Under the pieces are notes generated by a model. That model ran no database searches and had not been told where the DNA came from. It was given only the letters and a program-made list of their open reading frames with translations. A DNA stretch of 64,000 bases, from IMG/VR virus record IMGVR_UViG_3300025276_000020; one strand, written 5' to 3'. The stretch comes from a virus. Made by a program: the position numbers and the translations under genes. Positions 1,412-3,661 of the stretch are shown one piece after another (position 1 is the first letter of the stretch; each line of letters begins with the position of its first letter).

Positions 1412-1490
1412 CTTTCGTATACATAGAAAGTAGGGTAATTCTGCCCTACATTTTGTGAGCGACAGGGTAAAGCTGTCAAACAAGGAGAAA
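1412..1490 (+). promoter_or_regulatory. Structured 5' leader with tandem hairpins next to the SD
   Basis: gtagggta-attc-tgccctac (1430-1449); gacag-ggtaaag-ctgtc (1461-1477), extendable with ttgt/acaa into AAGGAG; TATACATA late-promoter-like box at 1418-1425. Confidence 0.45.
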
Positions 1491-1493
1491 GAT

Positions 1494-1808
1494 ATGAAAT
1501 CATTACTAGTTGTAATACTAGCAGTACTGTCTACGAGCGCATTCGCCGCACCATACGTAGAATATTCGAATCAACAACGATACACAGACCTGGACTACTC
1601 AGGTAAGTACAATCATGTACGCATTGGATACAAAGCAGACAATGGAATATACCTCGAAGCAGGTAGAGATCAAGACGGCAACGCTTTTGAGACTGGATAT
1701 AGTTTCAATTTTAACGAGCGACTGAGCATTAATGGTAAGTGGGAAGGTTCCAATACCGATAAGCTGAGACACACTGTTGAGACTGAGATCAGGTACACAT
1801 TTAAGTAA
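1494..1808 (+). CDS. Small secreted outer-membrane beta-barrel/porin-like protein
   Basis: AAGGAG SD before ATG 1494; signal peptide MKSLLVVILAVLSTSAFA; alternating beta-strands; C-terminal EIRYTF(K) beta-signal. Confidence 0.65.
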   Translation: MKSLLVVILAVLSTSAFAAPYVEYSNQQRYTDLDYSGKYNHVRIGYKADNGIYLEAGRDQDGNAFETGYSFNFNERLSINGKWEGSNTDKLRHTVETEIRYTFK

Positions 1809-1817
1809 GGATATATT

Positions 1818-2777
1818 ATGGAACTACTAACTATCTGGAGCCTTATTGGGTTTCTTTTTGCCGCTTATGCAGTAATTGCAAATGATTCAGTGCAGACGCT
1901 CGGCACTTGGATGGCATCAAACAATGAGCGATTCAACTACAAGACTATGTGGGCAGCCGCAAGTGCTGTGCTACTAGCAACACTGTGGTATGGTTGGACT
2001 GTAAATGGTGGAGACATCAGTTATGGTCGATTGAATAAGATTCCCTGGCAAGAAGTTCAGTGGTATCATGCCGCCGCACCAGGAATACTCGTACTACTTA
2101 CAAGACTAGGTGTACCGGTATCAACATCCTTTCTAGTGTTGAGTGCTTTTGCAAGTACTTTTGTGCTAGAAAAGATGTTGATGAAGAGCATCATGGGTTA
2201 TGGTATTGCCGCTCTGTTTGCATACGGTGTGTGGTACGTTGTATCACGTACACTTGATGAGGCAGAACCAGTACAAGAAAAGAACAAAAACTATTGGCGA
2301 ATAGCGCAGTGGTTTGCAACAGGCGGATTATGGTGGACTTGGTTGTCGCATGATATGGCTAATATTGCTGTGTTCTTACCTCGTGTTGTGCCAGTCGATC
2401 TAATGTTCTTGATATCATCTGTTTTCGTGATTGGTCTATTCTTTATGTTTAAAGAACGAGGTGGTAAGATTCAACAGATTGTACTAGAGAAGCACAACAC
2501 AAGATATGTCCGTAGTGCAACTCTGATCGATTTGTTCTATTGGTTATGTCTGTACTTCTTCAAAGAACTTAATGATATTCCTATGTCAACTACGTGGGTC
2601 TTTGTTGGTATGCTTGCTGGTCGTGAACTTGCTATCGCAACGTTTACAGGTAAGATGAAAATAAAATCTGTATTCCCTTTAGTGGGAAGAGACTTTATGA
2701 AGATGATGATTGGACTCGGTGCTTCAGTTGCTATCGTCTTAACAATACATTATGTACTGATACCAAACGGACTATAA
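1818..2777 (+). CDS. PiT/PHO4-like inorganic anion (phosphate/sulfate) permease
   Basis: Multi-TM protein with two PiT-like repeats: ANDSVQTLGT...GVPVSTS and HDMAN...IPMSTT. Confidence 0.65.
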   Translation: MELLTIWSLIGFLFAAYAVIANDSVQTLGTWMASNNERFNYKTMWAAASAVLLATLWYGWTVNGGDISYGRLNKIPWQEVQWYHAAAPGILVLLTRLGVPVSTSFLVLSAFASTFVLEKMLMKSIMGYGIAALFAYGVWYVVSRTLDEAEPVQEKNKNYWRIAQWFATGGLWWTWLSHDMANIAVFLPRVVPVDLMFLISSVFVIGLFFMFKERGGKIQQIVLEKHNTRYVRSATLIDLFYWLCLYFFKELNDIPMSTTWVFVGMLAGRELAIATFTGKMKIKSVFPLVGRDFMKMMIGLGASVAIVLTIHYVLIPNGL

Positions 2778-2778
2778 A

Positions 2779-2925
2779 ATGATAGATAGGGTCAGGAAAG
2801 CATTGACAGGTAAAAGATCACGTGTTATACTGATCCTATCCTTCACATTCTTCTTAGTGAAGGGTCTCGCATGGTTAGCTCTATGGGCATATGCGATGTA
2901 TTTTGGTTACACATTTTTTGATTAA
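2779..2925 (+). CDS. 48-aa membrane peptide (MIDRVRKALTGKRSRVILILSFTFFLVKGLAWLALWAYAMYFGYTFFD); not in the ORF track
   Basis: Translated by hand; starts 1 nt after the permease stop; basic N-terminus followed by a TM segment. Confidence 0.6.
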   Translation: MIDRVRKALTGKRSRVILILSFTFFLVKGLAWLALWAYAMYFGYTFFD

Positions 2926-2929
2926 TGTC

Positions 2930-2967
2930 TTGACAAGTGCGTCAAAATGGTGTAAACTGTATAAATA
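2930..2967 (+). promoter_or_regulatory. Tandem sigma70-type promoter and T4 late promoter upstream of the tmRNA
   Basis: TTGACA (2930)-17 nt-TAAACT (2953); TATAAATA at 2960-2967. Confidence 0.8.
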
Positions 2968-2971
2968 AGAC

Positions 2972-3272
2972 GTAGGTTGACAGTTGTTAATCTACAATTT
3001 GATTTGTTGAAGCAGATTGATACTGAACAGGACTCGGGTTCGAATCCCGACAGCTCCACCAAAAGCATACTGAATATGGCTAGTATGTTTTTGATGGGGC
3101 TGAACTGGGAATCGACTGGCAGGGTAGAAAAGTGGAGAATCCGGGTACGAGCTCCGTTAACGCAAGAAACTAAAGTAAACGCAAACGATAATTTTGCTCC
3201 TGTAGACTACGCCCTAGCGGCATAGTTGTACGGGGTTCGCCAGTACCTGTCAACAGAAACTGGCACCTTTTT
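2972..3272 (+). ncRNA. ssrA: Circularly permuted two-piece tmRNA; tag (A)ANDNFAPVDYALAA
   Basis: Acceptor piece has the T-arm GGGTTCGAATCCC and ends CAGCTCC-A-CCA at 3061. A hairpin intervening segment spans 3062-3095. The coding piece starts GGGGCTG at 3096 and pairs to give a G3:U70 alanine stem. Tag frame 3181-3225; 3' hairpin followed by a U-run. Outer ends are approximate. Confidence 0.93.
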
Positions 3273-3298
3273 ACGAAACAAACAAAGAAAGAAAACAG

Positions 3299-3661
3299 AT
3301 GAAAAACGTAATTTTGGCTACGGCCGCACTAGTAGCCTCAGCATCAGCAGTCGCCGCATTCGATGTGACTGACACATTTAGTATTGACAGCGAAGTAAAA
3401 ACGTGGTATAATACAAGTCAATCAACATGGACTGCACACTACGAAGTTAAACCAACTTACTCACCCTCGGCTCTACCAGGTATGGCTGTATATGTGATGA
3501 ACGATGGCGATCTACGTGATGTAAAGTATGATGGCGTTGAACTTGGAATGGAATACAAAATGGATAACTCAATGGTTAGCCCAGTATTGAAAGCCAAGGT
3601 AGGATATGATGAAGATTGGAATCGTGGTGACATTTTTGTCGGTGCAACTTTCAACTTCTAA
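3299..3661 (+). CDS. Second small outer-membrane beta-barrel-like protein
   Basis: Ala-rich signal peptide; amphipathic strands; ends IFVGATFNF with a terminal Phe. Confidence 0.65.
   Translation: MKNVILATAALVASASAVAAFDVTDTFSIDSEVKTWYNTSQSTWTAHYEVKPTYSPSALPGMAVYVMNDGDLRDVKYDGVELGMEYKMDNSMVSPVLKAKVGYDEDWNRGDIFVGATFNF

Follow-up and report, generated by a model that had tools for sequence, protein, structure and literature searches.

Organization of the locus

The window analysed here is the whole 64,000-nt stretch of the virus record IMGVR_UViG_3300025276_000020 from IMG/VR, given as one strand, and every coordinate refers to it. It carries a leader hairpin followed by three genes, g1, g2 and g3 (1453-2925), which we propose to form a single transcription unit and to be a phosphate-acquisition cassette of the phage. 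Judged from its gp32, gp59, hemO and bilin reductase genes, the window is part of the genome of an uncultured T4-like marine myophage. The features of the locus are as follows.

1430-1449, + strand: first leader hairpin, GTAGGG-loop-CCCTAC with a T-run; terminator-like or PeSL-like (PeSL, an element made of a promoter and a stem-loop); its sequence differs among loci
1453-1493, + strand: conserved cassette leader, with GTGAGC, a 5-bp stem, the loop GGTAAAG and a Shine-Dalgarno sequence
1494-1808, + strand: g1, 104 aa (84 aa mature), Phage_OMP family, candidate outer-membrane accessory protein
1818-2777, + strand: g2, 319 aa, predicted minimal transporter of the PiT/SLC20 fold (AlphaFold2, Foldseek, VIA, hhalign)
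2779-2925, + strand: g3, 48 aa, membrane peptide with a single helix, co-transcribed and not specific to the cassette

The initial annotation described three tightly spaced genes, and this description holds. The open reading frames (ORFs) are real, all three are on the + strand, and the gaps are 9 nt between g1 and g2 and 1 nt between g2 and g3. Further signs of an operon are the single leader, which stands ahead of g1, and the ribosome-binding site of g2 (AAGGA), which lies inside the 9-nt gap. The start of g3 follows 1 nt past the stop of g2, and g3 is probably translationally coupled to the preceding gene.

The g2 protein has the fold of a PiT transporter

None of the solved structures was matched by sequence, neither with g2 alone nor with a profile of 46 sequences, and the connection of g2 to the PiT family was made only by fold comparison and by profile-profile alignment. 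The AlphaFold2 (AF2) model of g2, built on the 46-member alignment, has a pLDDT of 92.7 and a pTM of 0.90. The only significant match of this model in a Foldseek search was 6L85, TmPiT, the Na+/phosphate transporter of Thermotoga (E 2.2e-4, probability 1.00). VIA-align superposed g2 on TmPiT with a Z score of 21.2 and an rmsd of 3.9 A over 291 of the 319 residues, and the next chain had a Z score of 6.8. Profile-profile alignment (hhalign) with 15 canonical PiT proteins gave an E-value of 3.6e-5 over 250 columns that cover both repeats; hhalign against E. coli PitA alone was uninformative (probability 3%). Moreover, 13 of the 46 diverse g2 homologues match the Pfam family PHO4 at an E-value of 0.01 or better, the best at 5.2e-7.

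The aligned residues include both signature motifs of the family. At the N-terminal signature I20-A21-N22-D23-S24 pairs with GaND of the GaNDxAN motif, the Gly being replaced, and at the C-terminal signature S177-H178-D179-M-A-N182 pairs with GaNDvAN, the Asn being replaced by His or Gln. The tips of the two hairpins pair as well, i.e. P100-V-S-T-S104 with PVSTTh and P255-M-S-T-T259 with PVSSTh. In the alignment of the g2 family N22, D23, P100, S102, P255 and T258 are conserved at 90% or more and T259 is invariant; some highly divergent homologues, few in number, lack D179. In TmPiT, phosphate and a pair of Na+ ions are bound by D22, D258, S105-T107 and S345-T347, and another Na+ by D327 (PMC7413737). 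g2 keeps the acidic and Ser/Thr ligands of the phosphate and Na+ sites as D23, D179, S102-S104 and S257-T259, and its D238 falls where, by its spacing, the third Na+ site (TmPiT D327) would be expected. The divergent permease with both PiT signature repeats that the initial annotation saw in g2 is thus confirmed in each respect it singled out: the repeats are present in divergent form, the two conserved Asp residues are D23 and D179, and the comparison with PiT structures that it proposed matched the fold (6L85, Z 21.2).

The g2 protein is built of the two inverted PD001131 repeats alone, each consisting of a pair of helices, a re-entrant hairpin and a further helix. W139 and D179 of g2 are 40 residues apart, as against 119 residues for W139 and D258 in TmPiT, and only 8 residues separate the g2 model helices 114-145 and 154-184. 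About 79 residues are thus absent between the equivalents of transmembrane helices (TM) 3 and 6, meaning that the scaffold/dimerisation helices TM4 and TM5 are missing. Human PiT2 from which two transmembrane helices and the large loop had been removed retained weak phosphate transport (PMC3126765). On the strength of the model, g2 is a protein of the PiT/SLC20 fold, and it is predicted to be, probably, a Na+- or H+-coupled phosphate symporter.

Cellular relatives of g2

The g2 family is large: 7951 clusters at 90% identity were obtained among the 8000 candidates scored, with 820 representatives at 50%. Throughout, these clusters carry either no name or the name 'hypothetical protein'. At least 596 relatives were found in the genome collection. 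The best cellular matches (53-64% identity) are from many Pelagibacteraceae, including HTCC9565 and complete genomes, and from Flavobacteriales, Micavibrio and Bdellovibrionota, and Patescibacteria.

A pitA-like gene of SAR11 (OG0001433 in the SAR11 Genome Atlas preprint) has been described that Pfam profiles fail to detect, whose product matches 6L85 by Foldseek with about 17% identity, and which is mutually exclusive with Pst/Pho (preprint 10.64898/2026.08.15.744057; PMC12636525). Tucker et al. 2025 (PMC12636525) name the gene pitA, regard it as the sole phosphate permease of many SAR11 from offshore waters and term it a permease of 'phosphate or sulfur'. The g2 family appears to be the same as this pitA-like/OG0001433 gene, as judged from common properties; in the two SAR11 genomes that we searched, no protein matched PHO4 at an E-value of 0.01 or better.

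The surroundings of the cellular genes include components of phosphate acquisition. Where pstB was present as well, in two complete genomes, the PiT-like gene is within 6 kb of it. In Pelagibacter Uisw_116 the PiT-like gene is divergent from a phoR-like kinase gene, which is followed by pstS and pstC, with pstB at less than 6 kb, and the Flavobacteriales copies have a histidine kinase gene directly 5'. Other neighbours were also seen. Many SAR11 genomes (among L027 and L030-L059; L numbers denote individual loci) have a gene for a 215-aa MIP-family channel 5' of the PiT-like gene, further Pelagibacteraceae loci have Fur-family or ZnuA neighbours, and in Flavobacteriales (L010, L016, L018, L020) an SBF/ACR3-like permease gene lies 3' of the PiT-like gene. 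These neighbours could hint at arsenic or metal links.

Distribution and variability of the phage copies

At least 576 contigs of IMG/VR carry the PiT-like gene, and in the 80 best of them its identity is 83-98%. A tblastn search with g2 gave no match among the 50,697 phage records of INPHARED. In the phylogenetic tree the phage copies form one clade (support 100/100) with a long stem and short internal branches; the sister link of this clade to Flavobacteriales is weak (86/58).

The phage copies are 82-98% identical to each other (L001-L004, L088-L167), and in the same set hemO, the reductase, gp59 and gp32 are 31-92% identical. For instance, between L001 and the window g2 is 91% identical, hemO 49%, the bilin reductase 34% and gp59 36%. 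Moreover, the phage PiT-like genes occur in many different gene contexts. This pattern suggests recent lateral spread or an unusually strong constraint, and, as far as sequence comparison can tell, it suggests that the PiT-like gene is a cassette that moves between phages under strong purifying selection. The related contigs reach a length of about 250 kb. One protein of 412 aa (P0001) was considered as a possible fusion of g1 and g2; it contains an internal duplication of about 95 residues instead, which is probably an assembly artefact.

A conserved leader hairpin with a covarying stem

The leader has a fixed spacing and the following order: GTGAGC (1455-1460), first arm of a 5-bp stem (1461-1465, paired with 1473-1477), GGTAAAG loop (1466-1472), second arm, AAGCAAAGGAG, 7-8 nt, ATG. 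The Shine-Dalgarno sequence AAGGAG is at 1482-1487, and the first base of the stem, 1461, precedes the start codon of g1 by 34 nt (position -33). The element stands ahead of g1 and not ahead of g2, and a covariance model (R1) finds it as a single copy in the 64 kb, with 53 bits. Directly 5' of it there are promoter-like sequences and the variable hairpin; hairpins of varying sequence are found at the same place as 1430-1449 in related loci. Together, the variable and the conserved hairpin have a folding energy of -24.3 kcal/mol (z -4.96). We also observed that in L141, L112 and L001 the first, terminator-like hairpin has a GGTAAAG-like or GGTCAAAG-like loop, i.e. the loop motif may be recognised in more than one hairpin.

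Between 9 and 12 variants of the stem were seen, all perfectly paired, and all five base pairs are changed on both sides. They include GACGG/CCGTC, GACAG/CTGTC, GATGG/CCATC and GCAGG/CCTGC, as well as GCCGT/ACGGC, GCAGT/ACTGC, GGTGT/GCACC and AACGT/GCGTT. We note that the first set of hairpins had been chosen for full pairing, which makes its 100% pairing circular. The recount was therefore anchored on the flanks and the loop, and 92 of 100 instances were fully paired. The other 8 are apparent chance matches: all have mismatched stems and six have loops unlike the conserved one. Since the stem varies freely and the asymmetric loop is conserved, the element has the character of a folded RNA rather than of a DNA-binding site. 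A Pho box, i.e. a DNA site of the PhoB type, was rejected for the same reason: a stem free to vary beside an asymmetric loop that is kept is what a single strand folded on itself would show, and not a repeat of half-sites. No Rfam family matches the leader, and the element is absent 5' of the cellular PiT-like homologues.

The genes that follow the leader were collected by two scans of IMG/VR with exact patterns for different stem variants, which gave 128 instances (82 and 46). In the first scan the leader was followed by a PiT-like gene in 70 cases (one of them cut), by PstS in 8 (PF12849, E 5e-47), by a 180-aa outer-membrane protein (OMP) in 3 and by a 55-aa ORF in 1. In the second, 37 instances were followed by a PiT-like gene, 5 by the 180-aa OMP and then a PiT-like gene, and 2 by Phage_OMP and then a PiT-like gene; the remainder were one Phage_OMP alone and one cut PiT-like gene. 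Over both scans the leader stands directly before a PiT-like gene in 107 of 128 instances, the others being PstS (8), the 180-aa OMP (8), Phage_OMP (3) and a cut PiT-like gene (1). In other words, the first gene is PiT-like, PstS or OMP-like in 127/128, and the remaining one is the 55-aa ORF, which is in an operon with a PiT-like gene. Wherever the locus is uncut, PstS is followed by a PiT-like gene (6/6). In some loci the leader is present twice, ahead of the OMP or PstS gene and again ahead of the PiT-like gene. In L195, which is without a PiT-like gene, the hairpin has decayed: 3 of the 5 pairs are left and the model score is 18 bits.

Going by these gene orders, the leader is the mark of an operon in which the PiT-like gene is constant and the slot 5' of it is taken by PstS, by a DUF2490-like barrel or by Phage_OMP (g1). 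The presence of PstS in the slot of the same leader is the strongest argument for phosphate as the substrate of g2. Examples of alternative operons behind this leader were seen in L224 (3048-5102), L247 and L252 (3560-4964): in some PstS precedes the PiT-like gene, and in others of this group a 55-aa Cys-rich ORF and a 69-aa ORF do.

The outer-membrane-like proteins and the small peptide

The g1 protein has a signal peptide, MKSLLVVILAVLSTSAFA, with cleavage before AP. It matches the Pfam family Phage_OMP (PF24653) with an E-value of 1.4e-11 and 45.1 bits (cut-off 27) over residues 1-103 and model positions 2-122, and it also matches phrog_417. Its C-terminus is RYTFK, and relatives have RYTF or RFSF. 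The fold matches of g1 are at best segments of outer-membrane barrels (Z up to 8.9). A closed barrel of at least eight strands, as a porin would have, was not seen in the monomer model, which has six strands in 84 mature residues. g1 is thus no monomeric porin and would need to form an oligomer.

The gene order of the lineage varies downstream of the reductase. The order reductase-g1-g2-g3 is found in the window and in L199-201, reductase-g2-g3 in L088-093 (g2 97-98% identical) and reductase-g1-g3 in L195-198, where the stop of g1 overlaps the start of g3. A comparison of L195 (3999-4509) with the window (1453-2925) shows that g2 is precisely absent, the overlap being TAATG. In a fourth variant the order is reductase-180-aa OMP-g2-g3 (L147-149, L156, L202-207). 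Such clean gain and loss of a single gene, together with the promoter-like sequence and the variable hairpin, recalls the PeSL cassettes of T4-like phages, and the upstream variable hairpin could be PeSL-like.

The gene upstream of g2 was recorded for the best 80 viral g2 loci, 65 of which have enough 5' sequence. An OMP-like gene lies directly 5' of g2 in 13 of these 65 (3 Phage_OMP, 6 of the 180-aa family, 4 of a 259-aa family). The 180-aa family is DUF2490-like, i.e. of an outer-membrane barrel type. When this family was sought on its own, a PiT-like gene followed in 14/14 loci with downstream sequence, which apparently span several flanking contexts; counted over uncut loci, it is followed by a PiT-like gene in 30/31. 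In cells the situation is different in that no member of the 180-aa family was found beside the PiT-like gene in 80 genome loci; in isolated cases a Porin_4 gene or a gene for a signal-peptide protein is the neighbour. The upstream slot shared by PstS and the OMP-like proteins favours, without proving it, an accessory role for the latter, and it is plausible that such a protein brings phosphate to the transporter.

The g3 peptide contains the motif FFLVKGLAWL and one hydrophobic helix. No family was found for it in PHROGs, NCBIfam or Pfam, and a protein atlas was uninformative. g3 occurs with g2 and without g1 in L088-093, and with g1 and without g2 in L195-198. A g3-like peptide is present in 11 of the best 80 viral g2 loci. 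g3 is directly 5' of the gene for transfer-messenger RNA (tmRNA) in each of the five places that were examined with ARAGORN (window, L088, L147, L195, L199). Since g3 is kept without g2, is missing from most PiT loci and lies by the tmRNA gene in these five places, we leave it out of the uptake route.

A proposed phosphate-acquisition cassette and its alternatives

Taken as a whole, the locus is in our view likely, with some reserve, to be a phosphate-acquisition cassette with g2 as its working part, g1 as its helper, the hairpin as a cis-element and g3 standing apart. During infection g2 would be inserted into the inner membrane of the host and would import phosphate with Na+ or H+; this phosphate would feed the synthesis of phage DNA. 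In this respect g2 would correspond to the pstS genes found in other marine phages, and would work independently of ATP. g1 would be exported by its signal peptide, probably into the outer membrane as an oligomer, and, being in the slot that PstS or a DUF2490-like barrel holds in related phages, it would most likely help to deliver phosphate. The hairpin with its GGUAAAG loop beside the ribosome-binding site would be a dedicated cis-element, probably a putative site for an RNA-binding regulator, and g3 would be a small membrane peptide from the same transcript, with a role that is probably its own.

The initial annotation had gone further, reading the three genes as a complete import route for an anion, perhaps phosphate, across the outer and inner membranes. 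This was an overstatement, since an outer-membrane partner is plausible only and g3 is not tied to transport. What stands of the proposed phosphate uptake is the inner-membrane part; the fold, the ligands and the pstS/phoR context give the phosphate reading good support. Likewise, the mini-porin survives as a secreted, outer-membrane-like beta protein; calling it a porin is an interpretation that six strands do not carry. The 48-aa peptide is there, with FFLVKGLAWL and its transmembrane helix, but it is not tied to transport: it persists in loci without a PiT-like gene and is absent from most loci that have one. The three genes, whose co-occurrence in viromes the initial annotation proposed to examine, are not constantly together: g1 and g3 are found without g2 in L195-198, and g2 and g3 without g1 in L088-093. 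The 180-aa OMP was followed by the PiT-like gene in 14/14 loci.

Several observations weigh against a phosphate-acquisition cassette. The score of g2 with Pfam PHO4 (PF01384) is 10.5 bits and thus below the cut-off of 33.7 (E 0.29). The position of H254 in TmPiT corresponds to an invariant Trp in the g2 family (W175, four residues before D179), and this signature His, H502 in human PiT2, is critical for transport (PMC7413737, PMC3126765). Without the scaffold/dimerisation helices, which the model lacks, g2 need not work by an elevator mechanism as TmPiT does. Some members of the PiT family can carry sulfate (CysP of Bacillus subtilis), and arsenate likewise. As for g1, its AF2 model (pLDDT 80.6) consists of a signal helix and six beta strands, 7 close relatives were found, g1 is present with g3 and without g2 in L195-L198, and 52 of the 65 viral loci have no OMP-like gene 5' of g2. 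The leader could be a feature of a mobile cassette rather than a regulator. We also note that the loci are redundant metagenomic contigs, many of which were retrieved by way of g2 itself.

An extended form of the proposal would be a module resembling the Pho regulon over three envelope compartments, in which an outer-membrane beta protein (Phage_OMP or DUF2490-like), PstS and a scaffold-less PiT are joined by a GGUAAAG hairpin that is read by an RNA-binding factor, of phage or host, tuning uptake in the course of infection; we regard this as possible but doubtful. It is rather unlikely, in our estimate, that g2 alone is related to phosphate and that g1 and g3 are unrelated cassettes in a hyperplastic region shuffled by PeSL-type elements, with g1 serving the envelope in some other way, for example by masking a receptor, excluding superinfection or remodelling the outer membrane. 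The lineage variants that lack either g1 (L088-093) or g2 (L195-198), the 52/65 g2 loci without an OMP-like gene and the breadth of Phage_OMP as a cyanophage family agree with such shuffling, as do the promoter-like sequences and the variable hairpin ahead of the conserved one; PeSL elements are known to shuffle genes in T4-like phages (PMC2839356, PMC4122927). Shuffling does not lead one to expect, however, a hairpin that is single in 64 kb and is followed by a PiT-like, PstS or OMP-like gene in 127/128 instances, nor the 14/14 succession of the 180-aa OMP and the PiT-like gene in apparently several flanking contexts, nor the decay of the hairpin in the PiT-less L195.

The other two alternatives concern the substrate and the leader. 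That g2 has the PiT fold but handles something else (sulfate, arsenate or a metal-phosphate complex), or serves as a sensor, or lets ions leak and so alters the membrane potential, seems improbable to us. Its strong divergence from PHO4, the loss of the signature His and of the scaffold helices, the MIP channel, Fur-family or ZnuA genes and SBF/ACR3-like permease beside some cellular homologues, and the wording 'phosphate or sulfur' for the SAR11 permease (PMC12636525) would suit a different substrate. All eight phosphate-contacting positions of TmPiT, however, are kept as Asp, Ser or Thr, pstS is found directly 5' under the same leader, the SAR11 gene adjoins phoR and pstSC, and the SAR11 gene of the preprint is mutually exclusive with Pst. 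Finally, the hairpin might be a general leader of exported or membrane proteins that serves mRNA targeting or stability and is not specific to phosphate, given that the PiT-like proteins, PstS and both OMP-like families are all Sec-dependent envelope proteins. To this we assign a very small likelihood: g4, a gene for a signal-peptide protein 1.5 kb away, lacks the hairpin, there is no second copy in the 64 kb, though further membrane proteins are expected in such a T4-like segment, and where the sequence continues the instances nearly always lead into an operon with a PiT-like gene.

Comparison with known systems

The g2 protein resembles the PiT/SLC20/PHO4 transporters (TC 2.A.20, TmPiT 6L85) in its fold and two inverted repeats, in the Asp residues of the equivalents of TM1 and TM6, in the PxSxT motifs at both hairpin tips and in having an acidic residue spaced as for the third Na+ site. 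It departs from them in lacking about 80 residues (TM4, TM5 and the central loop), in an identity of about 16%, in having A-N-D and H-D where the signatures have G-x-N-D, in the change of His to Trp and in a PHO4 score below the cut-off. The pitA-like proteins of SAR11, apparently of the same family, are closer: the length is that of g2, the Pelagibacteraceae genes are 53-62% identical to it and the same match to TmPiT was reported for the pitA-like gene. Unlike these, the phage copies form their own clade on a long stem and have a phage-specific leader.

The presumed aim of the cassette is the same as that of the pstS and phoH genes of marine T4-like phages, i.e. more phosphate during infection, and in some relatives pstS even has its leader and operon in common with the PiT-like gene. 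The difference is that g2 would be a complete secondary transporter, whereas PstS is a binding protein that needs the PstCAB of the host. The pstS gene of Pelagibacter phage Mosig has a different 5' region (L373, 1390-1494), with TGTTAA repeats and another hairpin. TGTTAA occurs there three times, the first two copies 11 bp apart in a Pho-box-like arrangement, and a GGCC-loop-GGCC hairpin follows.

Among eukaryotic viruses, Monier et al. 2012 are said to have described PHO4-type phosphate transporter genes in prasinoviruses. These too are transporters of the PiT/PHO4 superfamily borne by viruses of the marine plankton; they belong to viruses of eukaryotic algae and are canonical PHO4 proteins, whereas here a bacteriophage carries a minimal, divergent subfamily. 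PhoE and OprP are outer-membrane porins of the Pho regulon and form trimers of 16-strand barrels. The logic is the same, in that an outer-membrane protein is regulated together with PstS and with a phosphate transporter of the inner membrane; g1, however, is predicted to have 6 strands, is 84 residues long when mature and has no sequence or fold match to these porins. PeSL elements consist of a promoter and a stem-loop, and are found in many copies per genome before diverse ORFans in T4-like phages (PMC2839356, PMC4122927). The present locus shares with them the promoter-like sequence and stem-loop before variable genes and the clean gain and loss of single genes. Its conserved hairpin, in contrast, is single-copy, with a conserved loop, a covarying stem and one functional class of operon behind it, and we do not class it as a PeSL.

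No report of a PiT-type transporter in bacteriophages was found in the searchable literature, and the pelagimyophage papers are silent on one; the phage PiT cassette looks like an undescribed way to boost the phosphate uptake of the host. Phosphate is often limiting for marine bacteria and for the replication of their phages, and the known phage tactics (pstS, phoH, phoA) depend on the host's own transporter. If our proposal is true, a phage-borne, ATP-independent permease of the PiT type would be a tactic of another kind; its gene is carried by hundreds of viral contigs. In many SAR11 genomes from offshore waters a member of apparently the same protein family is the one phosphate permease that can be recognised, and the phage copies offer a compact, testable model of a minimal PiT without the scaffold domain. 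The covarying leader common to the PiT-like, pstS and OMP-like genes is a new candidate for a regulatory RNA element in phages.

Neighbouring genes and the host

The cassette is flanked by the following features.

42-578: hemO (heme oxygenase), first gene of the window
between hemO and the bilin reductase: ORF of 50 aa
718-1407: ferredoxin-dependent bilin reductase, directly 5' of the cassette
2946-3267, + strand: two-piece (permuted) tmRNA gene with the tag ANDNFAPVDYALAA, found by ARAGORN (2969-3316) and Rfam; a neighbour outside the cassette
3299-3661, + strand: g4, 120 aa, with a signal peptide and the C-terminal sequence GATFNF; a neighbour without the leader hairpin

The tmRNA gene scores 83 bits with the Rfam model alpha_tmRNA and 99 bits with tmRNA_permuted. 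Permuted tmRNA genes of the alphaproteobacterial type are known in pelagimyophage-like and Melnitz-like phages (PMC9004378). As the tmRNA is of this type, the phage need not be a cyanophage, and the sequence makes an alphaproteobacterium more likely as the host than a cyanobacterium. A sigma-70-like promoter is found ahead of the tmRNA gene at 2930-2958, and in related loci the tag has the variants ANDNFAHGQYAVAA and ANENFAPSGLFALAA. The hemO/50-aa ORF/bilin reductase cassette (42-1407) appears to correspond to the hemO/pcyX-type pair, which was described from uncultured marine phages (PMC11480375); the reductase may be PcyX or PebS.

For g4 only matches at chance level were obtained in PHROGs, NCBIfam and Pfam. 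The protein is beta-rich, and g1 and g4 are the only two small beta proteins with a signal peptide in the 64 kb. The place of g4 is taken in L101 by a protein of 259 aa that ends in GASFNF, after the tmRNA gene and before the PiT-like gene. Past g4, the window continues with genes for a DsbA-like co-activator, gp59 and gp32; in the DNA of gp32 the closest cultured relatives are S-SSM4 (74%) and Pelagibacter phage HTVC008M (73%).

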